Positions 1 through 58,657 of a stretch of DNA of 64,000 nt are shown one piece after another. The notes under the pieces are model-generated. The model saw only the letters and a program-made list of their open reading frames with translations, searched no databases and was not told the origin of the DNA. Origin of the DNA: Escherichia phage 348Ecol098PP; sequence record OR062947.1. One strand, given 5' to 3'. Each line of letters begins with the position of its first letter. Within the stretch, counting starts at the first letter, position 1. The position numbers were made by a program, and so were the translations under genes.

Positions 1-46
1 TAACTACGTCCAGTGTATTGAACGTTTAAACAAATTTAATTAATTG

Positions 47-77
47 GTTTACACCAAAGTTAAAACAAGATACTATA
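47..77 (+). promoter_or_regulatory. T4-type early promoter (GTTTAC box, TACTAT -10-like)
   Basis: ggtttacacc...tactataaac read directly upstream of the first ORF; spacing about 18 nt. Confidence 0.4.
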
Positions 78-104
78 AACATAACAAATCAAGAGGAAAT
101 TAAC

Positions 105-353
105 ATGGAATTATTCGTAGCTAGTTCAGTAGCAGTTTTAATCGCAGGTATTGGTTCAATCATCATTTACATGTTGCCTTGGGTAATCGCACTTATTCGT
201 GGCACAAAAAGCACAACAGCAATCTTCTTTGTATCTTTACTCTTTAACTGGACGATGGTTGGTTGGATTGGAACTTTAATTTGGTCTATCGTTGCCGAAA
301 AGAAATCTGCTCAGCAGCCTCAACAAGTAATTATTATTCGCGAAAAAGAATAA
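105..353 (+). CDS. small hydrophobic membrane protein (two predicted TM segments), function unknown
   Basis: ATG at 105 preceded by aagagga SD; 82 aa; hydrophobic stretches; lies in the 61.x small-gene block upstream of primase. Confidence 0.5.
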   Translation: MELFVASSVAVLIAGIGSIIIYMLPWVIALIRGTKSTTAIFFVSLLFNWTMVGWIGTLIWSIVAEKKSAQQPQQVIIIREKE

Positions 354-357
354 ACTT

Positions 358-392
358 GTTTACATTATAGATGGACTATAGTATAGTAGTCC
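358..392 (+). promoter_or_regulatory. early promoter with inverted repeat around -10 (PeSL-like cassette)
   Basis: gtttaca at 358, then palindrome ggactatagtatagtagtcc at 373-392 enclosing a tatagt -10-like hexamer. Confidence 0.5.
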
Positions 393-416
393 TATCAAAT
401 CAACTAAGGAGTTAAA

Positions 417-710
417 ATGAAAAAGTTATCATTGGCAGCAATCTTACTTGCAGTATCATGTGCACCGGCTCCAGTTACGGCAGGTTATGATAAAGACCTC
501 TGTGAGTGGTCAATGACTGCAAATCAAGAAGATGTTGAACAACAAATCTTCTCTGATATCATGAACATCACTAAACGAGACCGTCCTAATATGGTTAATA
601 AAGTTGTTGAACAACTTAAGTCTGGCGGTATCATGCAGTACAACTATGTTTTGTATTGTGACCCTAATTTCGATAACAAAGATATCGTAACCGAAATCAC
701 AGGTGAATAA
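417..710 (+). CDS. sp: spackle-like periplasmic protein (secreted, signal peptide)
   Basis: 97 aa; N-terminal signal peptide MKKLSLAAILLAVSCAPA; aaggag SD; size and position upstream of gene 61 match T4 sp (61.3) as I recall it. Confidence 0.5.
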   Translation: MKKLSLAAILLAVSCAPAPVTAGYDKDLCEWSMTANQEDVEQQIFSDIMNITKRDRPNMVNKVVEQLKSGGIMQYNYVLYCDPNFDNKDIVTEITGE

Positions 711-3960: not shown

Positions 3961-4197
3961 ATGGGTGGTTACGTTAATATCAAAACCTTTACACGTCCGG
4001 CTGGTGAAGGTAAAGAAGTTAAAGGTATGGAAGTTTCTGTGCCGTTTGAGATTTATTCAAACGAACATCGGATTGCAGATTCTCATTACCAAATCTTTCC
4101 ATCAGAAAAGGCAGCTTATTCTACTGTAGTTTCTGATGCAGCTGACTGGAAAACTAAGAACGCTGCAATGTTTACCCCTACACCAGTAAGTGGTTAA
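3961..4197 (+). CDS. soc: small outer capsid protein Soc
   Basis: 78 aa; GYVNIKTF...HYQ.FPSEKAAYSTV matches remembered T4 Soc. Confidence 0.85.
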   Translation: MGGYVNIKTFTRPAGEGKEVKGMEVSVPFEIYSNEHRIADSHYQIFPSEKAAYSTVVSDAADWKTKNAAMFTPTPVSG

Positions 4198-4206
4198 ATA
4201 ATTTAA

Positions 4207-4230
4207 GGAATCCTTCGGGATTCCTTTTTT
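4207..4230 (+). terminator. rho-independent terminator
   Basis: ggaatccttcgggattcc hairpin (UUCG loop) followed by tttttt. Confidence 0.8.
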
Positions 4231-10227: not shown

Positions 10228-10258
10228 GTTTACAACCAAGGATGGTTGGAGTATAATC
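10228..10258 (+). promoter_or_regulatory. early promoter cassette (family A)
   Basis: gtttacaaccaaggatggttggagtataat; near-identical copies at 10786 and 59673. Confidence 0.55.
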
Positions 10259-10845: not shown

Positions 10846-11376
10846 ATGATTACTATTGGTGAAATCCTTCGTGTATCTCCTGCTTCTCGTTCTAAAGCTG
10901 CAGGTCGTCTGGTTGAAGTAGCAGGGCTTCGTACTAACGGCATGGGACGTGTTAAAGAAGTTAAAGTTCGAATCATCCCCAGTTTTGGCGGACAAGATGC
11001 CCAGTATGCTTACGTAAGTCCTAAATTCCTGGAAAAACATATACGAGTCCAATTTGCTTCAAGCGAAGAAGTTGCACCTGCACACTTTGCTTCTGTTGAA
11101 GAAGTTGAATCACGTGATGGATACGTATGTGAATCCACTGAGCCTAATGTACAGTTCAAATGGGCCCTTTGCAAAGGCGTTGAATTTATAACCGATAAAG
11201 AATTTGATTACATCGACGAATACGGTTATCCAAGCAAAACTGATACTATGTGCGGCTTCATCAGCGACCAATGGGTTGAAGATGGTAAAAAGCTATACAA
11301 TATTGTATTCTTAGGTGACTTCCGAGTTGTTGAAGAATCTGAAATCACTCGCTATGTGTCTCCACGTAAAGCTTAA
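10846..11376 (+). CDS. hypothetical protein, paralog 2
   Basis: ATG at 10846 downstream of the promoter (the track start 10783 lies inside the promoter); C-terminus GFISDQWVEDGKKLYNIVFLGDFRVV. Confidence 0.55.
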   Translation: MITIGEILRVSPASRSKAAGRLVEVAGLRTNGMGRVKEVKVRIIPSFGGQDAQYAYVSPKFLEKHIRVQFASSEEVAPAHFASVEEVESRDGYVCESTEPNVQFKWALCKGVEFITDKEFDYIDEYGYPSKTDTMCGFISDQWVEDGKKLYNIVFLGDFRVVEESEITRYVSPRKA

Positions 11377-11864: not shown

Positions 11865-12389
11865 ATGTTAGTTTACCGCGTAGAACGTAGTTTTTGTACT
11901 CAACGTGAATCATTACCAGGAATTGCTATCAAAGACGGTAAAGCCGTCAGAATTTGGGAAACCTCTTGGAATAAAGAACCTCGTTCGCCATACGGTTGGT
12001 CGGGCACCGACAACTCTGAAGAAACATGGGAGTTCCTTGATAAGCATGGAATACTCTCAGGTAACTTCTACCATCATGGCGACAACTATAATGTCCCTAA
12101 TCGTCCTACAGTAAATGAAGACAAACTCCTTGAACAAAATATCTTAAGATACTATAGAATTGATCACTCATTTGAATTGAGTGAAGATTGGGCCCAAGGG
12201 TTCTATTTTGGATTTGAAAGTGTTGACGCGGTTTATGCATGGTTTGATGACCAGGTGGATGTTGAACTCTTGAAAGCTAAAGGATACTACATCGCGGTCT
12301 ATGAAGCGCCTGATTTCATCCTCGGAAGTTGTCAATTAATGTTCAGACGTTCATTGGCAGAACAAGTTGATTTTATTTTGCTAAAATGA
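11865..12389 (+). CDS. hypothetical protein
   Basis: ATG at 11865 after cagaggag SD; 174 aa. Confidence 0.5.
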   Translation: MLVYRVERSFCTQRESLPGIAIKDGKAVRIWETSWNKEPRSPYGWSGTDNSEETWEFLDKHGILSGNFYHHGDNYNVPNRPTVNEDKLLEQNILRYYRIDHSFELSEDWAQGFYFGFESVDAVYAWFDDQVDVELLKAKGYYIAVYEAPDFILGSCQLMFRRSLAEQVDFILLK

Positions 12390-12423
12390 TGTACAACAAC
12401 TATGGTCTATGATACTATAGACC
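12388..12423 (+). promoter_or_regulatory. early promoter cassette (family C, ...tatagacctatcaa)
   Basis: atgtac box, tactat -10, inverted repeat ggtcta/tagacc flanking the -10. Confidence 0.45.
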
Positions 12424-12446
12424 TATCAAAACAAGAGGAGAATATT

Positions 12447-20199: not shown

Positions 20200-20222
20200 G
20201 GGGACTTCGGTCCCCTTTTTTC
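20200..20222 (+). terminator. rho-independent terminator
   Basis: ggggacttcggtcccc hairpin followed by tttttt. Confidence 0.8.
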
Positions 20223-20539: not shown

Positions 20540-21016
20540 ATGAAGGTGAAGATTGCTGACACTGCTCGGTATTCCCTGAGCCAAAATCCTGGCCAAAACA
20601 AAGAAGATGTAGTTCGACGTTGTAAGGTTGCGGTCTTTGCAGAGTATGTAGTAGCAAATTGGCTAGACGGATATGTTAATAAAGGTATTGAAGATGTAGA
20701 AGACCCGTACACGTATGCATGGGACGTGTTAGCTCATCCTAAATACTGCGGGTTGCGTGTAGAAGTCAAGACACACCAGATAGATTCTAAATGGATTTCG
20801 GTTACCACAGGATACAGCGGTGATTATCCAGGTGGTAATGGAATCAATATAGGGCCCTTCTTGAACCATCGAGTCGCAGATTGCATTATTATATTAGATG
20901 TCAAAGAAACCTCACCTGACGTCTTCTCTTATTCTATAAAGTTCGTGGGAGACCATGAAGACCTAAAGAAAATCGTCCGCAAGAGCAACTACAACGGGTG
21001 GTATCTTCAACTTTAA
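20540..21016 (+). CDS. hypothetical protein (start uncertain; denB region)
   Basis: ATG at 20540 just after the upstream stop; the track ORF extends to 20396 in an overlapping frame. Confidence 0.4.
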   Translation: MKVKIADTARYSLSQNPGQNKEDVVRRCKVAVFAEYVVANWLDGYVNKGIEDVEDPYTYAWDVLAHPKYCGLRVEVKTHQIDSKWISVTTGYSGDYPGGNGINIGPFLNHRVADCIIILDVKETSPDVFSYSIKFVGDHEDLKKIVRKSNYNGWYLQL

Positions 21017-21028
21017 TTTCATAAAAGT

Positions 21029-21064
21029 GTTTACAACTAAGTAGGACTATGATATAGTAGTCCT
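21029..21064 (+). promoter_or_regulatory. early promoter cassette (family B, aggacta...tagtcct palindrome)
   Basis: gtttacaactaagtaggactatgatatagtagtcctatc; 7-bp inverted repeat around the -10. Confidence 0.55.
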
Positions 21065-21084
21065 ATCTAAAAGAGGATAACATC

Positions 21085-21348
21085 ATGAAATTTAAATTTT
21101 TCTACGCAAAACATAAAGTAACAGGCGAATTTGTTTCAATGTACAACACTGCAGATGACGAAGGGATGATTTATACCCATTTGGGTCTATCTCATTGGGA
21201 CTCAGACGTGCCTTATATGTCATCTGAAGCCGAAATAACTCGTCTGGTTAATGGACATATGAACGACCATTTTAGTGTTATTCTTTCTAAAGACCTTAAA
21301 GAGGTTATCAACAAAGGATATATGGAACTCGCGGAAGTTGAGATATGA
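21085..21348 (+). CDS. hypothetical protein
   Basis: 87 aa; aaaagagga SD. Confidence 0.5.
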   Translation: MKFKFFYAKHKVTGEFVSMYNTADDEGMIYTHLGLSHWDSDVPYMSSEAEITRLVNGHMNDHFSVILSKDLKEVINKGYMELAEVEI

Positions 21349-21538
21349 GCTCTAAAATGTGGATCGGAATATGGTTGCTTAGTATCCCTATGATTTGTAT
21401 AGTATTTTCAATTGTATTGAGGTACTTATGAAAAATGCACTTATTATTGTACTAAGAACAATTTGTGATACGGGTTTTTACATCGCATGTTCGTTCACTG
21501 GATCATGGTTGGCTTTAACATATTTTAATGTAATTTAA
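21345..21538 (+). CDS. two tiny overlapping hydrophobic ORFs (28 aa at 21345-21431 and 36 aa at 21428-21538), tentative
   Basis: ATGA-coupled mini-ORFs encoding hydrophobic peptides; no independent support. Confidence 0.2.
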
Positions 21539-21540
21539 TT

Positions 21541-21578
21541 GTTTACAACAAGGTAGGATTATGGTATAGTAGTCCTAC
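21541..21578 (+). promoter_or_regulatory. early promoter cassette (family B)
   Basis: gtttacaacaaggtaggattatggtatagtagtcctac. Confidence 0.5.
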
Positions 21579-21598
21579 TGAAACATGAGGAACACAAA

Positions 21599-21799
21599 AT
21601 GGCTAAGCTTTTTAAAGATGTTGAAATTGGTGAAAAATTTGTCCTGAATAATGGTCAGCAGCTTATTCGTGTAGCTTCTATCGCCGGACAAACTCATAAC
21701 TGTATCGCCCCAACGTGTTGGACTCGATTCTTTATTGAAGATGACACTGAATGTTTAACTGTTGAAGAGCTTTTTGAACGTTCTGATATAGCCGAATAA
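21599..21799 (+). CDS. hypothetical protein
   Basis: 66 aa; catgaggaa SD. Confidence 0.5.
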   Translation: MAKLFKDVEIGEKFVLNNGQQLIRVASIAGQTHNCIAPTCWTRFFIEDDTECLTVEELFERSDIAE

Positions 21800-21801
21800 A
21801 A

Positions 21802-21837
21802 TTGTACAAACTCTTGAGAGCAGAGTATAATGCTCTC
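21802..21837 (+). promoter_or_regulatory. early promoter cassette (family D, gagagca-tataat-tgctctc)
   Basis: ttgtacaaactcttgagagcagagtataatgctctc; near-identical copy at 52535. Confidence 0.55.
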
Positions 21838-21875
21838 ATGGATTACAAAAACATTAATCAATTGAGGAAATTAGC

Positions 21876-22322
21876 ATGTCCAAATATTTAACTCGTAAAG
21901 ACCTTCTGGCAGTTGGCGGTGAAGTTGTTGCAGTAGTTCGTAATGGCGAATACGGTTCTGAAGTTTCTAAAGAGTTTCGTTCTCGTGAAGGTTTTTACTT
22001 CTTTGTTAAAGGTTCATCTGACTGGCGTCAAGTTGCAGCACGATTCTTTGTAGGACGTCAACGTTCTAAACAAGGGTTGGATGCAATTCTTTCTCACATT
22101 CGTCAAGGCCGTTCGCAACTAGCCCGTACTATGGGCACTAACAATATTGAATATGATGTAATCTTTGTTGCAGCTAAGAACATGAAACCCCTGACTACTG
22201 GTTATGGTAAAGGACAATTGGCTCTGGCATTCACTCGCAATCATACATCAGAATATCAAACACTCACTGAAATGAACCGTCTTCTGGCAGATAATTTCAA
22301 ATTCGTTCTGCAGAGTTACTAA
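21876..22322 (+). CDS. ndd: nucleoid disruption protein Ndd
   Basis: 148 aa; GFYFFVKGS...[27 protein letters not shown]...[42 protein letters not shown] matches remembered T4 Ndd. Confidence 0.8.
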
Positions 22323-22524: not shown

Positions 22525-22661
22525 TTAAGAAAATCTTAGCAGGAGCCTTCGGGCTCTTGTTTTTGCTTACGGTTCTGTACTACGGTGTGATGTTTGGGCT
22601 AATCCAAGTAGTGCTTTTCATTTCAGATGTTATAATGGTTATTCGTTCATTAATATGGTGA
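22521..22661 (+). CDS. small membrane protein
   Basis: 46 aa hydrophobic ORF, ATGA-coupled; contains the terminator-like hairpin gagccttcgggctc and the putative middle promoter for 52. Confidence 0.3.
   Translation: MIKKILAGAFGLLFLLTVLYYGVMFGLIQVVLFISDVIMVIRSLIW
22611..22636 (+). promoter_or_regulatory. putative MotA-box middle promoter upstream of gene 52
   Basis: agtgctttt (MotA-box-like) then about 12 nt then tataat at 22631-22636. Confidence 0.35.
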
Positions 22662-23991: not shown

Positions 23992-24092
23992 GCCTTGGAG
24001 TCGAGTTCTTGTTACTATGTATCTTTGCTGTTATTCTAGGCCTGGCGACAGGCTTAGCTATAGGTTTAATAGCAGCCCACTTTAAAAAGTAA
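23988..24092 (+). CDS. small membrane protein, tentative
   Basis: 34 aa hydrophobic ORF, ATGA-coupled to the 52 stop, ending at the terminator. Confidence 0.3.
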   Translation: MSLGVEFLLLCIFAVILGLATGLAIGLIAAHFKK

Positions 24093-24113
24093 GGAACCTT
24101 CGGGTTCCTTTTT
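24092..24113 (+). terminator. rho-independent terminator
   Basis: aggaaccttcgggttcct hairpin followed by ttttt. Confidence 0.8.
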
Positions 24114-24134: not shown

Positions 24135-24168
24135 GTTTACATGTGCTTCAAACATGATATTATAGACC
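24135..24168 (+). promoter_or_regulatory. early promoter cassette (family C)
   Basis: gtttacatgtgcttcaaacatgatattatagacctatcaa. Confidence 0.5.
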
Positions 24169-24202
24169 TATCAAAACAAAACAACCGAATTGGAGAAATA
24201 AA

Positions 24203-28217: not shown

Positions 28218-31200
28218 TTATGCTAAACGAACGATATAGTTAAAAGCAATGTTTTTAACTGTGTTTTCTGTATTACCTGTACTATTTACAGTGATAGTAT
28301 GACCGTGCGAACCAATTGCTACCGAGTGGGTATGAGCACCAATACCTACAGTATGTGTATGGGCACCAATACCTACAGTATGCGCGTGGTTACCTGTGGT
28401 ATTTGTAGTTCCAGACCAAGAGTGCGTATGGTTACCTTCTGTCGATGACTTTGCAATATATTGGCCTATACCAGGCACGATTTTGTCGCTCGTGGCAAAA
28501 GAAAGAACCTGGGTTCCGCTAATTGCAGTAGCTCCATTAGGATATATTCCTGTTGGTTGATTATTAGGACCCCTTGGACCGGTCTGTGAGTGTTGGTGGT
28601 TCCCTGCTGCGCCAGTAGTACCACTAACGCTATGGTTATGGTTACCTGTTGTGTTGCTGGTTTTAGTACCATAATCGAATGATGAGGTGGTTTTAGTACC
28701 ATAATCGAATGATGAGGTGGTTTTAGTACCCAAATCTGTGCTTGATGCACTTGCACTATGGCTATGAGACTTAATACCATCAGCTTCTGTACTTAATACA
28801 GCACGCCCGGATGGTTTACCCTTGATAGTTTGACCACGCATATCAGGCAGAGCGCCGGAAGGATACACCGCAGCTAACTTAGGATACAAGTCAGTATCAA
28901 ACGTCTGGCCTTCCATGATGGCATAACCTTCAGGAGGTGTATCAGTAGGCCAAGGAATCGGAGCACCAATTGGGTAACTCGAGACAATATCCGTCTTAAG
29001 GTTATTTATTGTGGTATTCAAGTTAGCAAAATTACCAGTGCCGCCAGTGATGTTACCATCAGTACCGAATTGAGCATTACCAACTTTTAATGGTTTTGAA
29101 AAAAGAACATCGTCGGTTCTAAATGCAACCCCATGACCTAATGCATTATTATATAAGTTAAGTTCATCTGAACTACCACTCCCATTACCAACGTACCATT
29201 TAACCGTATTAGCTTTTTTACCCTGAATATAAACAGCGTTGGTCAATGAAGCCGAGTTAATAATAAGCGCGGCGTTATTAGCGTTAATTGTGATAGCTTG
29301 CCCTGATGTTGTTCCACTAGTTTCTACTTTAAATCTTCCACCACCGATATCAACATCATGATCCATGGAAACTTTACCAGTACTTAATGTAATATAGAAC
29401 GGACGTAAATTAGAAATACCACCTGATTCACCAGCATTCTGCGGGGTTGGAATAATATAAAGCTTATCTTCAGAACGACGGAAAATAGCACCGTATTCGG
29501 CATTCCAAATTCTTAATGCATCAGCAGTTCCGCCAATTTTAACTTGTCCAGTAATAGAAGAACCACCTTGGACAAACAAACCATTAGACATGGTAACATT
29601 ACCACCAAAAGAACCTGTACCAGAGGCACTTATATTTCCGAGCCCGACAATATGTCCAGTTTCTACAGTACCATTAAATTTAAAGTTAACCGGACCTACT
29701 GTTTGACCTGATGCAGGAGCAGTGCGTTGTGCATAAAAATAATATCCATGCCCGTCAGCTAATTCAAAAACTGTTTCACGAGTACGAGCGCCAGATGCGT
29801 TAAATGAATTACCCCACGCTTTAATAGATACATAACTTTTATTCTGACCTGCACGAGTACCACCAGCCCACAGTATAGTTTTAGTACCATCTACTGCTGT
29901 AGGAGCGTCAAGTTGAATACCATCGGGTCTAGCGCCAGTAAGAACTAATCCGTTATCAAATTTAATTCTTTGTATTGAAGATACTGTTCCGTCCGCTCTA
30001 ATAGCAACGCTATTGGAACCGGTTTTAATATCTAAAATTCCTGGGTCAACAATAAGCCCTTCGGCCATACTAACGGACATACGACCTGTACCACGGAAAT
30101 AGTGATACATTTTAGAATTACTGTTATAACCGATATGAGTTTGTCCATCACCGTTATTATTTCCATCAACATCAGTACGCGCAGTAAACATTGCTTGGTT
30201 GTTATTTGGGTAATCCCAAGTAGTACCAGAATTGCGGCTATAACCGACCATCAATTTCTTAGTGCTGTTAATACCGTTATTCAAAATGGTAGCGGATGAA
30301 ATACCGTTAGCCATGAAATCAATAACACCGTCGCGGACCCATTTAATACCTGTATCGTTATCACCAATGGCAATACCAATAGAAATAGCTGAATCCAAAG
30401 GATAACGTCCATTTGTACCATTATCAGGAAGACCTACTGAAATAGATTTACCTGCAGTAATACGCCCACTAGTATCAAACGCCCATTGGAAAGATTCCGG
30501 ACCTATACCAGTCCACCAAGAAATTTCTTGTGGCTTTCCTGAACGACAATCAGCTATTTCATGGAAAATACTAGAAGTATTCGAAGCCCGCATCTTACGG
30601 AGGTAGTTAAGACCATTTGTATTACGGTCAGAGCCATCTGCCGGTGGATTATAAATCCACATAGGTAAAGAAACCCAATCGTATCCAATGTTAGCATTAG
30701 CTACAAATGTTTTTGTACTAAAATTAATATTTTTAGTAACAATTTCAGGACCGGTGATAATACCATTAGCAGAGTTTATATTGCCTGAAGCAGAAATATT
30801 ACCGGTACGAACTTCAATACTACCAGAATCTACGATGAAATTACCATTTCGATTAAAAGTCCAATATTTCGAATCACCAGCTTCATTAATATAGTGAAAT
30901 TTAAAACTACCTTCGTTTACTAATGTACCAGCAGAAAAAGTACCGTCTTTATAACGCTGCTTAATCAGAGGATGGTATTCTGATACTGAGGTAGCAGAGC
31001 TCAAATCCGTAAAGATAGGAGCTTTATTTAGGTGTTGATTTGCCCACGCGCCATTTCCAGCAGTTTTTGGCAAGAATTCAATATACTTTCCTGCATAAAC
31101 AAACTGGTTTCCATTAAGATTATATGTACCGTTTTGTAAATAATCACCATTTTGAGTTACATTACCGTTAATATCCCCGCCCTTAGCAAAGCCTAGGCTA

Positions 31201-37132: not shown

Positions 37133-37175
37133 GTTTACGCTTTCAAATGAGTGTGTTACTATAGTCAAGTTGACT
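37133..37175 (+). promoter_or_regulatory. early promoter for rnh with palindrome at the start region
   Basis: gtttac at 37133, tactat -10, then agtcaa-g-ttgact palindrome. Confidence 0.45.
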
Positions 37176-38389: not shown

Positions 38390-38705
38390 TATTAAACCGG
38401 TTGATGAGGCCGGTTTATCTGAACAAGAATTAGCAGTAAAACACGATAAAGATGATATCGCTAAATTGCTTGACCGACAAGAAAACGGATTCATTATAGA
38501 ATCCATGGTTGAACAATTTGGTATGTCTTATTTAGAAGCAACAACTGCGTTCTTGGAAGAAAATTCTATTCCAGAAACACAATTTGCTAAATTTATTCCT
38601 ACAGGAATTGTTGAAAAAATTACAAGCGAAGCAATTGACGAAAACATGCTTCGCCCGTCAGTTGCTCGTGGTGAAAAAACTAATACGTTAGATTTCTTAT
38701 TATGA
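38367..38705 (+). CDS. 33: late transcription co-activator gp33
   Basis: 112 aa ORF between dsbA and the 59/32 region. Confidence 0.75.
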   Translation: MTQFSLSDIKPVDEAGLSEQELAVKHDKDDIAKLLDRQENGFIIESMVEQFGMSYLEATTAFLEENSIPETQFAKFIPTGIVEKITSEAIDENMLRPSVARGEKTNTLDFLL

Positions 38706-39385
38706 AATACGTTGTGTATAAAACTACCAATAAAATAAATGGTAAAATTTATATAGGCGTACACAAAAAACATAAAGAGAAAGATTGGTATATTGGATCA
38801 GGCCGCGCTATATTAGCGGCCAAAGCTAAATATGGACTAAAAAATTTTTATACCGAAATTCTTTATGAATATGATAATGACAAGGACGCCTATAAAAAAG
38901 AAGCAGAATTGGTTAATGAAGATTTTGTTTTGCGAACTGATACTTATAACTTAGTTCCCGGTGGTAAAGGTGGCCCTGGTAAAAAACAAAGTGATGAAGC
39001 TAAAAGGGCTATTTCACTTTCTAAATTAGGTAAACCTAGATCTGAAGAGACTAAGGCTAAAGTATCTAAAACCAGATTAGAAAGAAAAATACCATCCCCT
39101 AATAAGGGTAAGAAACTATCTGAAGCTCATAAATTAGCTTTGAGTAAAGTCCGAAAAGGGCGAAAAACGAATAAGCCGATGCCTGATTCAACCAAAGAAG
39201 CTCTTAGAATAGCAAATTCAAAGCCGCATTCTAAAGAAAGAACTATTAAAAAACAAAAACCTATAATTATTGATGGTATAAAATACTCATCATGCACAGA
39301 AGTTTCGGATGTTTTTAATATTTCTGCATCTCTAGTTACGTATAGACTTAAATCTTCAAAATGGCCTGGATGGAACTATGATTAA
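38702..39385 (+). CDS. free-standing GIY-YIG homing endonuclease (Seg-like)
   Basis: 227 aa; N-terminal YKTTNKINGKIYIGV GIY-YIG module; basic C-terminal DNA-binding tail; inserted between 33 and 59. Confidence 0.75.
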   Translation: MKYVVYKTTNKINGKIYIGVHKKHKEKDWYIGSGRAILAAKAKYGLKNFYTEILYEYDNDKDAYKKEAELVNEDFVLRTDTYNLVPGGKGGPGKKQSDEAKRAISLSKLGKPRSEETKAKVSKTRLERKIPSPNKGKKLSEAHKLALSKVRKGRKTNKPMPDSTKEALRIANSKPHSKERTIKKQKPIIIDGIKYSSCTEVSDVFNISASLVTYRLKSSKWPGWNYD

Positions 39386-41105: not shown

Positions 41106-41136
41106 GTTTACTTCTTCCCTGGATGTGTTAGTATAG
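41106..41136 (+). promoter_or_regulatory. early promoter cassette (family C)
   Basis: gtttacttcttccctggatgtgttagtatagacctatcaa. Confidence 0.5.
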
Positions 41137-41163
41137 ACCTATCAACAACATGAGGAAATCAAA

Positions 41164-41568
41164 ATGGAAATCGGAAAATCTTATATCATTAACCCTTTAT
41201 TTAAAGATGACTTTGTTCAAGAAGCACCACACAATAACGCTAAGATGTTAAAATTGATTGAACTCCACGGGCCTAGTTTTGTTGTAAACGGAATGGAACC
41301 TGATTATGATAGCGATACGTCAAACGTAGTAAGTGTAACTATGGAAGATGGTACTGTATGTTCTGCCGGTGGTGAAATTGAAACTTATTTTGAGATTTAT
41401 CCTGACGAGTTCAAATACTTTATTGAGTACTTTACTGAGGTAACTTTAGAAAAGCCTCAACCTACTAACGAAGGTATAACTTTAGGTGTAACAAAAATCC
41501 ATTGTATCGTAGATGAAACCAACGTCGACGAAATCATCAAACTTTTGCAAAAAACTTTTAAAAAGTAG
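41164..41568 (+). CDS. hypothetical protein
   Basis: 134 aa; catgaggaa SD. Confidence 0.5.
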   Translation: MEIGKSYIINPLFKDDFVQEAPHNNAKMLKLIELHGPSFVVNGMEPDYDSDTSNVVSVTMEDGTVCSAGGEIETYFEIYPDEFKYFIEYFTEVTLEKPQPTNEGITLGVTKIHCIVDETNVDEIIKLLQKTFKK

Positions 41569-41604
41569 TGTACAATCAGATAGGGTTATGTTATAGTAGC
41601 CCTA
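41568..41604 (+). promoter_or_regulatory. early promoter cassette (family B)
   Basis: gtgtacaatcagatagggttatgttatagtagccctatcaa. Confidence 0.5.
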
Positions 41605-41632
41605 TCAAATCAAAAGTGAAGCGGAGAATAAA

Positions 41633-41881
41633 ATGAGATTGCAACGCCAGAGCATCAAAGATTCGGAAGTTAGAGGTAAATGGTACTTCAACATCGTCGG
41701 TAAAGACGCTGAACTCCTTGAACAAGCTGAAGAAGCTTTACGAGAAATGGGTTGGAACGAAGAATGTGATGGATGTCCACTCTACGAAGATGGTGAAAGT
41801 GCAGGATTCTGGATTTATCATTCTGACGTCGATCAGTTTAAAGCTGATTGGAAAGTTGTTAAGAAAAATCTGAGGAAATAA
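41633..41881 (+). CDS. hypothetical protein
   Basis: 82 aa; gcggagaa SD. Confidence 0.5.
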   Translation: MRLQRQSIKDSEVRGKWYFNIVGKDAELLEQAEEALREMGWNEECDGCPLYEDGESAGFWIYHSDVDQFKADWKVVKKNLRK

Positions 41882-52320: not shown

Positions 52321-52535
52321 CTAAAGAACAGCATGAATACATTAAAGGGCTTATCTATGAATCTGAAATGGCGGCTATGATTTATGGACGCCAGATTCAA
52401 CGATTAGAATCTTTGCCTCCGACTAATGACCGCTTGTTAGTTCAGTCTCGTGCTAATCTGAAAAATGAATATCAGAATAAGTGGGCAGTAGCGACTAAAG
52501 CTCTTCATGAGTATATTGAATCTTTAGTAAAATAG
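52311..52535 (+). CDS. hypothetical protein
   Basis: 74 aa ORF. Confidence 0.45.
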   Translation: MSMTKEQHEYIKGLIYESEMAAMIYGRQIQRLESLPPTNDRLLVQSRANLKNEYQNKWAVATKALHEYIESLVK

Positions 52536-52569
52536 TTTACAAACTCTCGGGAGCAGAGTATAATGCTCC
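52535..52569 (+). promoter_or_regulatory. early promoter cassette (family D)
   Basis: gtttacaaactctcgggagcagagtataatgctcc; palindrome ggagca/tgctcc around tataat. Confidence 0.55.
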
Positions 52570-52592
52570 TATGGATAATTGAGGAAATCTAA

Positions 52593-52891
52593 ATGAAAAC
52601 ATTACTAGAGAATTACATCAAACGGTCTGATGAGTATATTGATATCTGCCGTGGAATGTCACTTGTCGATTATGACAAAGATGCAGCAAAGGCACTAGAT
52701 GAAGCAGGTAAAGCTCTTCGTAAAGCTGCTAAAGAAAAAGGGTTGGATTTGCAACAACTCAAAAGTCATATGATTAAATTTATTTCTTCAAACGTTAGAA
52801 GTACGTCAATTAATAAAAACGTTGCTGAAATTAATAAAGACCGGCGCGAGCATAACATTCGTATTCTTGAAACTTTCTTAGGAATAAAATA

Positions 52892-52892
<1 letters not shown>
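52593..52892 (+). CDS. hypothetical protein
   Basis: 99 aa ORF. Confidence 0.5.
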
Positions 52893-53978
<1,086 letters not shown>

Positions 53979-54660: not shown

Positions 54661-54699
54661 GTTTACAACATGGTGGAGTTGTGATACTATAACTCTACC
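54661..54699 (+). promoter_or_regulatory. early promoter with imperfect 9-bp inverted repeat around -10
   Basis: gtttac at 54661; ggtggagtt ... aactctacc flanking tactat. Confidence 0.5.
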
Positions 54700-54718
54700 A
54701 ACAAATGAGGAAATAGAA

Positions 54719-58587: not shown

Positions 58588-58627
58588 GTTTACTTTGGTA
58601 CAGGTTATGTTATTATAGACCTGTACC
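58588..58627 (+). promoter_or_regulatory. early promoter with 8-bp inverted repeat flanking -10
   Basis: gtttac at 58588; ggtacagg ... cctgtacc flanking tattat. Confidence 0.5.
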
Positions 58628-58657
58628 AACAAACAACTTAAACATCTGGAGAATAAA

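Follow-up and report, generated by a model that had tools for sequence, protein, structure and literature searches.

Stem-loops predicted around the -10 box of early promoters in a Mosigvirus, and recombination junctions at their cores

Near the start of the 64,000-nt stretch of phage DNA analysed here (the window), at position 358, what reads as an early promoter is overlain by a short inverted repeat, and closely similar elements recur at 21029, 21541 and 41568. The question raised by this locus is whether the four are members of a discrete family of repeated cassettes or cases of a more general property of early promoters, and at what level, DNA or RNA, the inverted repeat would act. The window comes from a Mosigvirus, an RB69-like T-even phage, and is 98% identical to Mosigvirus genomes; its first 6 kb show 98% identity to many Escherichia phages, and the annotated record NRG-P0074 allowed us to place it in the Straboviridae, Tevenvirinae, Mosigvirus. 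Early transcription runs along the + strand of the window, on which imm, sp, 61, 56, soc, mrh, modA/B, srd, dda, dexA, motB, cef, 39, rIIA, rIIB, denB, ndd, 52 and motA are followed by tail-fibre genes on the opposite strand and then by 32, frd, td, nrdAB, pseT, cd, 30 and alt. No Rfam family matched anywhere in the window, and a terminator scan revealed CTTCGG-loop terminators in it.

Promoter parts and inverted repeats of the four copies

A sequence-only reading of the window had grouped the four elements as a promoter family (family B), and all four are present at those coordinates. When the window was searched with TATAGTAGYCCTA, allowing at most one mismatch, four matches were returned, all on the + strand, where 0.08 would be expected, and none of 100 shuffles reached four. 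Judged from the arrangement of their parts, the copies can be read, as had been proposed, as T4-type phage early promoters, with an UP region, GTTTACA, a 17-nt interval and TATAGT in place; the -35 element is TTTACA or TGTACA, the spacer is 17 nt long and the -10 box is TATAGT in 4/4 copies. The heptamer GTTTACA, which had been given as common to all, is found in copies 1-3 and is GTGTACA in copy 4, and the spacer, which had been given as about 12 nt, is 8 nt when taken from GTTTACA to GGA and 17 nt between the -35 and -10 elements. A TGn motif at -15/-14 is present in copies 2-4 (TGa, TGg and TGt, respectively), the corresponding bases of copy 1 being TAg, and the two copies that lie in the stretch scanned for sigma-70 hexamers match at 10/12 positions.

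Copy 1 (358..398, +), the predicted promoter of the spackle gene (sp, 417..710, +) directly downstream, has its -35 element GTTTACA at 358-364 and its -10 box TATAGT at 382-387, with the arms of the inverted repeat at 373-379 (GGACTAT) and 386-392 (GTAGTCC). Copy 2 (21029..21069, +; -35 at 21029-21035, -10 at 21053-21058) lies downstream of denB, and its arms are GTAGGACTAT (21041-21050) and GTAGTCCTAT (21057-21066). Copy 3 (21541..21581, +; -35 at 21541-21547, -10 at 21565-21570) is a direct repeat of copy 2, 512 bp further downstream, with the arms GGTAGGATTAT (21552-21562) and GTAGTCCTACT (21569-21579). Copy 4 (41568..41608, +; -35 GTGTACA at 41568-41574, -10 at 41592-41597) is found between the frd.2-like and frd.1-like genes, and its arms are GATAGGGTTAT (41579-41589) and GTAGCCCTATC (41596-41606). 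Deduced from this spacing, the start site would be the A of CCT-A-TC, that is, A394, A21065, A21577 and A41604 for copies 1-4. The sequence upstream of all four is A/T-rich, and 20-30 nt downstream there is a Shine-Dalgarno sequence with an ATG (at 417, 21085, 21599 and 41633). The genes that follow are spackle and three small ORFs of unknown function: an 87-aa ORF (PHROG 2390, 21085-21348), a 66-aa ORF (PHROG 2183, 21599..21799, +), of which copy 3 is the predicted driver, and an 82-aa frd.1-like ORF (PHROG 1254, 41633..41881, +), which copy 4 is predicted to drive. Two of the copies lie within the denB-ndd region.

The inverted repeat is present in all four copies, although its extent had been understated, since it comprises 7-11 pairs when G.U pairs are included. 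The motif that had been said to follow each copy is found exactly, as CCTATCAA, after copies 1 and 4, with CCTATCTA after copy 2 and CCTACTGA after copy 3. Folded as RNA, the hairpins of copies 1-4 have energies of -11.1, -13.2, -13.6 and -16.3 kcal/mol, with z values against dinucleotide shuffles of -3.6 to -6.6 (copy 1, -3.57; copy 2, -4.08; copy 4, -6.62), and that of copy 3 is far more stable on the sense strand (-13.6 kcal/mol) than on the antisense strand (-6.3 kcal/mol). The stem of copy 4 differs from those of copies 1-3 by a compensatory A-T to G-C change.

The stem among early promoters of the window and of other phages

The early promoters of T4 are known as 'uber' promoters (UP/-35/TGn/-10), in which further positions are conserved as well (Liebig & Ruger 1989; Hinton 2010, PMC2988021), and in the RB69 early promoter logo C is preferred at -3..-1 (Nolan et al. 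2006, PMC1524935). The window promoters agree with them in GTTTAC at -36..-31, an A-rich stretch at -40..-44, TGn, TAnnnT, C at -3..-1 and the existence of extra conserved positions; they differ in their dyad symmetry and in the covariation of spacer and discriminator, neither of which is mentioned in the passages of PMC2988021 and PMC1524935 that were consulted. We curated a set of 23 early promoters on the + strand of the window, to which a 24th (21803) was added later, and the consensus of the 23 consists of an a-rich stretch, GTTTACA, ....Ga.taTG., TAttAT and Ag.ccTATcaa. The features GTTTACA, TGn and downstream cTATCAA, which had been taken as marks of a family, are part of this consensus and therefore belong to the general T-even early promoter. 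The palindrome, in keeping with what had been claimed for it, is an extra feature past the -35 and -10 hexamers and goes beyond the generic T4 consensus.

It is not, however, peculiar to family B. To score stems, we matched a left arm out of the spacer with a right arm out of the -10 box plus discriminator, the control being arms paired across different promoters; a score of at least 6 was reached by 11/23 promoters, compared with 3.3 in the cross-pairing permutations (P<0.0005), and the stem sequences differ (GGACTAT, GGTCTATG, GGGAGCA, TGGTGGAGTTGTG, TGGTACAGGTT and TGGAT). A separate class of promoters, at 10228, 49945, 51129 and 59673, has the stem inside the spacer with a loop of the AAGGA type. 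The promoter cores (-31..+8) have a mean z of -2.7 as RNA.

Several of the other promoters illustrate this variety. The ndd promoter (21802..21840, +), with TGTACA, 17 nt and TATAAT, has the -10-box stem GAGAGCA/TGCTCTC and is a sequence relative of a promoter at 52535..52575 (+; -10-box stem GGGAGCA/TGCTCCT), which heads a cassette with two small ORFs (to ~53083) that T4 does not possess; the two stems (P21803 and P52535) differ by a double change of G-C to A-T. The cd.3/cd.2 promoter (54661..54701, +) has a 13-pair -10-box stem and is orthologous to T4 Pe133331 and to a promoter of Dhakavirus VR5, the stems being GGTGGAGTT/AACTCTACC in the window, GGTAGAGTT/AGCTCTACC in T4 and GGTAGGACT/AGTCCTACC in VR5, and all differences among them are G.U or compensatory. 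The promoter at 58588..58630 (+), orthologous to T4 Pe129918, has the -10-box stem GGTACAGGT/ACCTGTACC. A second proposed family (family C, TATAGACCTATCAA) does recur, with cores at 12416, 24161 and 41132 (three matches, 0.04 expected). Its copy at 12389..12429 (+) has a -10-box stem of its own, in which GGTCTATG (12404-12411) pairs with TATAGACC (12416-12423; -9.5 kcal/mol, z -4.35), while neither the copy at 24135..24174 (+), directly preceded by a CTTCGG-loop intrinsic terminator, nor that at 41106..41145 (+), with a terminator-like hairpin upstream, after gene 32, has a -10-box hairpin.

The proposal that most early promoters of the window fall into a few repeat families is not borne out by the set, in which 13/23 are singletons at 70% identity over -24..+6. 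Pairs at least 70% identical number 14, compared with 7.3 under a position-independent model, which is a weak excess (P=0.076). Identity between family B copies over the same positions is 73-83%, where the mean is 50%. The UP regions and 5' UTRs of the four copies, positions that lie beyond promoter or hairpin constraint, are mutually unrelated, so that much of the likeness is attributable to shared constraints and not to recent duplication. In addition, the right arm is in essence the consensus discriminator, to which the left arm is complementary, so that every promoter in which the two occur together will resemble family B.

The same architecture is found in other phages. T4 has it in Pe20612, Pe133331, Pe129918, Pe146143 and Pe8218; Pe20612, ahead of dmd, contains GCTGACAAGACTATGGTATAGTAGTCTTGTCGGT (-21.7 kcal/mol) with the core ACTATGGTATAGTAGT as in the window, and Pe146143, the ortholog of copy 4, has a different stem with its axis near -14. 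Acinetobacter phage Acj61, from a different subfamily, also shares the architecture (for example, GATAGGACTATGATATAATGGTCCTATC), and a stem around the -10 box is present in about half of the early promoters of the window, T4 and Acj61. With a 45-nt family-B query, Mosigvirus genomes gave 7-11 places each, some Tequatroviruses 1-2 and Acj61 seven. The strict core (22 bp) stands ahead of at least 11 different genes in IMG/VR, and many of those contigs share with the window only promoter-sized islands of 40-90 bp; an IMG/VR search with the Ndd protein returned three loci, too few for ortholog statistics.

Covariation was assessed in a gap-free alignment of 71 distinct promoters that had not been chosen for hairpins, with a 12-pair helix about an axis at -11.5. 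Pairing cells amounted to 59.7%, compared with 55.9+-0.9 when partners were shuffled (0/500), and changes on both sides were seen in 77 cells, compared with 41.5 in the shuffles (0/500), these P values being optimistic because the pooled promoters include orthologs; sliding the partner by 1-3 columns reduced pairing to 29-48%. Since shuffled columns still pair and the observed pairing exceeds that of the shuffles, the consensus itself is dyad-symmetric and single promoters covary on top of it. A fixed dyad axis was considered as a sign of a promoter-mechanistic role and was dropped, as the axis moves in T4 Pe146143 and some stems lie within the spacer.

Sense-strand folding and the relation to terminators

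Among 47 promoters from the window, T4 and Acj61, folding of the sense strand is favoured over that of the antisense strand by about 2.5 kcal/mol once composition is corrected for (P=6e-9, a value made optimistic by pooled orthologs), and G.U pairs make up 58/398 of the sense pairs compared with 25/372 of the antisense pairs; part of the G.T excess could stem from mutation with a strand bias, C to T on the non-template strand. The hairpins are marginal when folded as single-stranded DNA (-3 to -6 kcal/mol, with a z of -1.25 for copy 3). Since the right arm reaches its end at about -2 to +5, the promoter's own transcript would not contain the stem, and the whole hairpin would form only in RNA reading through from upstream. 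A core hairpin of -7 kcal/mol or lower was found in 0/8 promoters that follow a canonical intrinsic terminator and in 32/61 others (Fisher P=0.006), a comparison of 69 distinct promoters whose effective sample is smaller because orthologs are included and in which the eight terminators are mostly of the CTTCGG-loop type. The link is clear solely under this explicit definition of a terminator, the folding energies of the cores and of the whole 64-nt upstream stretches showing no significant correlation (rho -0.05). Taken together, the sense-strand bias, the G.U pairs and the absence after canonical terminators indicate an RNA hairpin in read-through transcripts.

The hairpins do not themselves have the form of canonical terminators. 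The tails behind the stems of copies 1-4 are ATCAAATC, ATCTAAAA, CTGAAACA and ATCAAATC, none of which is a U-tract, so that canonical intrinsic termination is not predicted, and identification of the stems as intrinsic (rho-independent) terminators was rejected on this ground. The terminator scan, which listed the genuine CTTCGG terminators, did not list the family B stems on the + strand. In the record of phage SA35RD, the orthologs of copies 2 and 3 are nevertheless annotated as rho-independent terminators (WebGeSTer/TransTermHP). A literature search for Term-seq or TSS maps of T4 produced nothing usable.

REP/BIME palindromes and the intercistronic C(UUCG)G hairpins of T4 are short intergenic elements that act in the sense RNA as 3'-exonuclease barriers or weak attenuators for the upstream cistron. 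The same role is proposed for the window hairpins, and promoters that follow CTTCGG terminators are without an embedded hairpin; the REP and CUUCGG elements, on the other hand, are not known to be embedded in promoters, whereas some nucleotides of the window hairpin belong also to the -10 box and the discriminator. The promoters of the phage N4 virion RNA polymerase also have a short inverted repeat in the promoter region, and there the hairpin forms by extrusion of the DNA, and the polymerase that recognises it is a single-subunit enzyme encoded by the phage. The window elements, in contrast, are predicted to be standard sigma-70 duplex promoters, and the evidence favours pairing of RNA and not of DNA.

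In each copy, the 3' half of the spacer is complementary to the discriminator and start region, which places the -10 box in the loop and inner stem. The right arm is little more than the generic promoter consensus, and the left arm, in an otherwise free part of the spacer, has evolved to pair with it, so that promoters with both features look like one 'family'. As to mechanism, the stem would act in sense-strand RNA reading through from the upstream gene. Its most likely task there would be to define where the upstream unit ends on its 3' side, as an attenuator, a barrier to 3'-exonucleases or both, and it would replace a canonical terminator where the intergenic space is very short. The start sites are predictions from the sequence, and so is any influence that the hairpin may have on RNA 3' ends.

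Recombination junctions, known elements and rival readings

The suggestion that the palindromes might coincide with recombination junctions in related genomes proved correct for JM10, Av-05/phiE142, L017 and the comparison of T4 with the window. In a collection-wide search with 20700-21900 as the query, one Mosigvirus, JM10, gave a match that spans 689 bp instead of 1201. JM10 has a single chimeric promoter here, whose sequence agrees fully with copy 2 as far as GGACTATGATATAGTAGTCCTAT and, from TGAAACATGAGG on, with the downstream side of copy 3, placing the crossover in or at the edge of TATAGTAGTCCTA, common to copies 2 and 3. It is thus without exactly 512 bp between direct repeats, a unit that in the window runs between equivalent points of copies 2 and 3 (21067..21578, +) and contains the 87-aa ORF, a spacer and one promoter. 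Av-05 and phiE142 share a 358-bp unit (family-B core, ORF, family-B core) that is 99.7% identical between them, with both flanks unrelated. At the site of copy 4, L017 has an extra frd.2 paralog with its own promoter, and the upstream side of copy 4 is like one of the L017 promoters and its 5' UTR like the other.

In the comparison of T4 with the window, homology is interrupted at 21035, 403, 58588, 24120 and 52528, all of which are promoter edges: it stops at 21035 inside the -35 element of copy 2, starts for sp at 403, directly past the palindrome of copy 1, starts exactly at the -35 element of P58588 and stops 7 nt before P52535. RB14 and VR5 have an extra ORF inserted directly after the cd.3 promoter and ribosome-binding site. 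NRG-P0074, at 98% identity, differs from the window by seven indels, mostly of homing-endonuclease or tail-fibre genes and none at these promoters, which indicates that promoter-mediated exchange is occasional; as this genome is uninformative at family B, the junction evidence comes from more distant relatives and the collection-wide search. These comparisons show that the conserved cores of 13-45 bp are homology patches at which promoter-plus-ORF cassettes have been deleted, inserted or swapped.

Such behaviour is known from the PeSL (promoter-early stem-loop), a composite cassette of early promoter and stem-loop described in phi1/RB49 (Arbiol et al. 2010, PMC2839356), in which the stem lies between -35 and -10 or overlaps the -10 box. 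PeSLs occur preferentially ahead of ORFans in hyperplastic regions, deletions, insertions and replacements take place through them, and in phi1/RB49 they were shown to form mini-circles (PMC2839356). Comeau et al. (2014, PMC4122927) applied the concept to PST/T4 and nt-1/KVP40 as well, the PST/T4 stems being of the form AGNA-loop-TCNT, with one example in the ndd region. The window copies have the A/T-rich region, the sigma-70-type early promoter, the stem-loop and the Shine-Dalgarno sequence with ATG; their stem overlaps the -10 box, with 7-11 pairs and -11 to -16 kcal/mol as RNA, and its AGGA...TCCT fits AGNA-loop-TCNT. They are also dispersed, with four strict copies in 64 kb, of which three precede small ORFs of unknown function and two lie in the hyperplastic denB-ndd region, and they stand at junctions of deletion, insertion and replacement. 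Of the excision of mini-circles, the matching deletion product is what is seen, in JM10. On the other hand, the stem tested experimentally in phi1 is G/C-rich (GGGG...CCCC) and behaved as a strong terminator would, whereas those of the window are richer in A/T, contain 3-4 G-C pairs and are not followed by a U-tract; the window -35 element is GTTTAC, of the T4 type, rather than TTGACA, and the PeSL descriptions do not explicitly cover RB69-like phages. As far as sequence can define it, the window elements have all of the defining features of PeSLs, and, on that footing, they are known biology.

We consider it likely, then, that the four copies are sigma-70 T4-type early promoters with a built-in PeSL hairpin acting in read-through RNA, and that their cores serve as recombination patches. 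Some of the evidence could instead be read as a few discrete families of recently duplicated or mobile cassettes, in which common descent would account for the sequence that they share and for its palindrome: no pairs in the window are more alike than those of family B, TATAGT never occurs without AGTCC or AGCCC, one 22-bp core is found before at least 11 different genes in IMG/VR, Mosigvirus genomes have 7-11 matching places each and the movement of cassettes is directly visible. This reading is unlikely, given that the copies are unrelated beyond the constrained positions, that singletons prevail with only a weak excess of similar pairs, that -10-box stems of unrelated sequence occur at many other promoters and that the near-identical cores of a distant Acinetobacter phage (GGACTATGATATAATGGTCC) are fitted at least equally well by shared constraint. 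The covariation that runs from coliphages to the Acinetobacter phage about the -11.5 dyad might also mean that the hairpin is a dedicated regulatory device and not a passive barrier at 3' ends, being either a recognition structure, in read-through RNA or in DNA, for shut-off or insulation of early promoters, or the target of a structure-specific factor that actively catalyses the exchange of cassettes, which we regard as a decidedly long shot.

Readings at the level of DNA have still less in their favour. An A/T-rich loop containing the -10 box, junctions in or at the edge of palindromes, and the speculation of the PeSL authors on a stem-loop-recognising protein (PMC2839356) would suit a DNA hairpin or cruciform that aids melting of the -10 region or is a substrate for a structure-specific nuclease, endonuclease VII for instance, whose cut would initiate the recombination of cassettes; we think this very improbable, because the structures are weak as single-stranded DNA, A.C mismatches between the antisense arms disfavour a cruciform and ordinary homologous recombination over 13-45 bp is sufficient for the junctions. 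There is, if anything, slightly less to be said for a double-stranded DNA operator, bound by a dimeric phage or host protein such as an early shut-off factor that would block RNA polymerase at the -10 box 2-3 min after infection. The consensus is indeed dyad-symmetric about -11.5 (shuffled columns pair at 55.9%, compared with ~37% when slid) and how early promoters are shut off is reported not to be understood, but the arms covary instead of holding one sequence, a sense-strand G.U asymmetry is meaningless for duplex DNA, the axis moves in some orthologs (T4 Pe146143, near -14), some promoters have the stem inside the spacer and the half-site centres, ~15 bp apart, would face opposite sides of the helix. 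We give the same very small probability to the palindromes having no function and being a side effect either of a consensus that is in part its own complement or of template-switch (quasipalindrome) mutation: column composition does account for much of the pairing and only half of the promoters have a stem, yet covariation exceeds the shuffles (0/500), stems are kept across genera through compensatory changes, the strand asymmetry is strong and hairpins are missing after canonical terminators.

To the known PeSL, the present analysis adds that the palindrome occurs generally, in about half of the early promoters of different genera, that it covaries and is a feature of the sense strand, that the hairpin is missing from promoters that follow a canonical terminator, and that a deletion junction lies, at base level, exactly between two of the reported copies. 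The promoters with built-in hairpins explain the repetitive look of the intergenic regions of RB69-like phages. The same 35 bp is annotated by pipelines as a promoter in one record and a terminator in another. For engineering, they are compact promoters, predicted to be strong, with a possible built-in insulator and foreseeable sites of deletion, and the strand asymmetry and the absence after canonical terminators make the RNA role of the stem testable. For the T4-type phages as a group, the cores are seams for the gain, loss and swapping of small early genes, many of which are likely to serve host adaptation or anti-defence.

Non-orthologous promoters ahead of orthologous genes

Comparison of window positions 1-420 with T4 at 19.7-20.7 kb (locus L022) showed that the promoters here are non-orthologous, whereas the genes are orthologous. 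A promoter like those of family B, in which the -10 box lies inside a hairpin-forming palindrome, stands ahead of dmd in T4 but ahead of sp in the window, and the T4 sp promoter, which is hairpin-less, is similar to the imm promoter of the window at 47. In the collection-wide search with the 1.2-kb query (window 20700-21900), the ndd promoter (21800-21849) was the sole part of the query matching some records, at 90-93% identity; Salmonella phage vB_SenS_Jbel is one record that shares only this promoter with the query. The ndd promoter match is a promoter-sized island of homology.

The T4 record describes positions 133300-133313 (locus L023) as 'inverted complement of previously reported sequence; corrects the early promoter Pe133295', and we found these 14 nt to coincide exactly with the stretch that the corrected promoter's stem arms, GGTAGAG and CTCTACC, enclose. 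The earlier T4 sequence report came either from a sequencing artefact linked to the hairpin or from a genuine inversion of the DNA that the arms enclose.

Other promoter arrangements and terminators

A second class of early promoter, at 10228, 49945, 51129 and 59673, carries its whole stem within the spacer that separates the -35 box from the -10 box, with an AAGGA-type loop between the arms (for example, TACCACA-AGGAT-TGTGGTA), and T4 Pe167086 resembles this class. The promoter at 37133, the first early promoter past the tail-fibre block, has no stem around its -10 box; a palindrome, AGTCAAGTTGACT, lies right at its start region (37163-37175).

Intrinsic terminators of the canonical type, each with a T-run and a CTTCGG tetraloop, were located at 20200-20215, 22538-22561 and 24091-24110, with others of the same kind at about 4195-4215 and upstream of 58144. 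The promoters downstream of these terminators have no hairpin around the -10 box.

Extra, replaced and divergent segments

Between pseT.1 and pseT, the window contains a promoter and two small ORFs of 99 and 63 aa (52535-53083), and this segment looks like a promoter-plus-ORF cassette, because T4 is contiguous at this place. A 227-aa ORF between genes 33 and 59 (38702-39385) has a GIY-YIG-like N-terminus (KIYIGVHKK...) and probably encodes a Seg-type homing endonuclease; alignment of T4 and of the annotated, 98%-identical Mosigvirus NRG-P0074 with the window showed it to be absent from this position in both.

Two short segments are replaced relative to NRG-P0074, one at 11035-11134 (99 bp against 24 bp) and the other at 23992-24092 (100 bp against 75 bp), the latter in the terminator region directly upstream of the promoter at 24135. 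The distal tail-fibre region (28419-29725) diverges strongly from NRG-P0074, with gaps and blocks of 89-92% identity, whereas outside it the two are 95-98% identical, and this divergence probably represents host-range variation.
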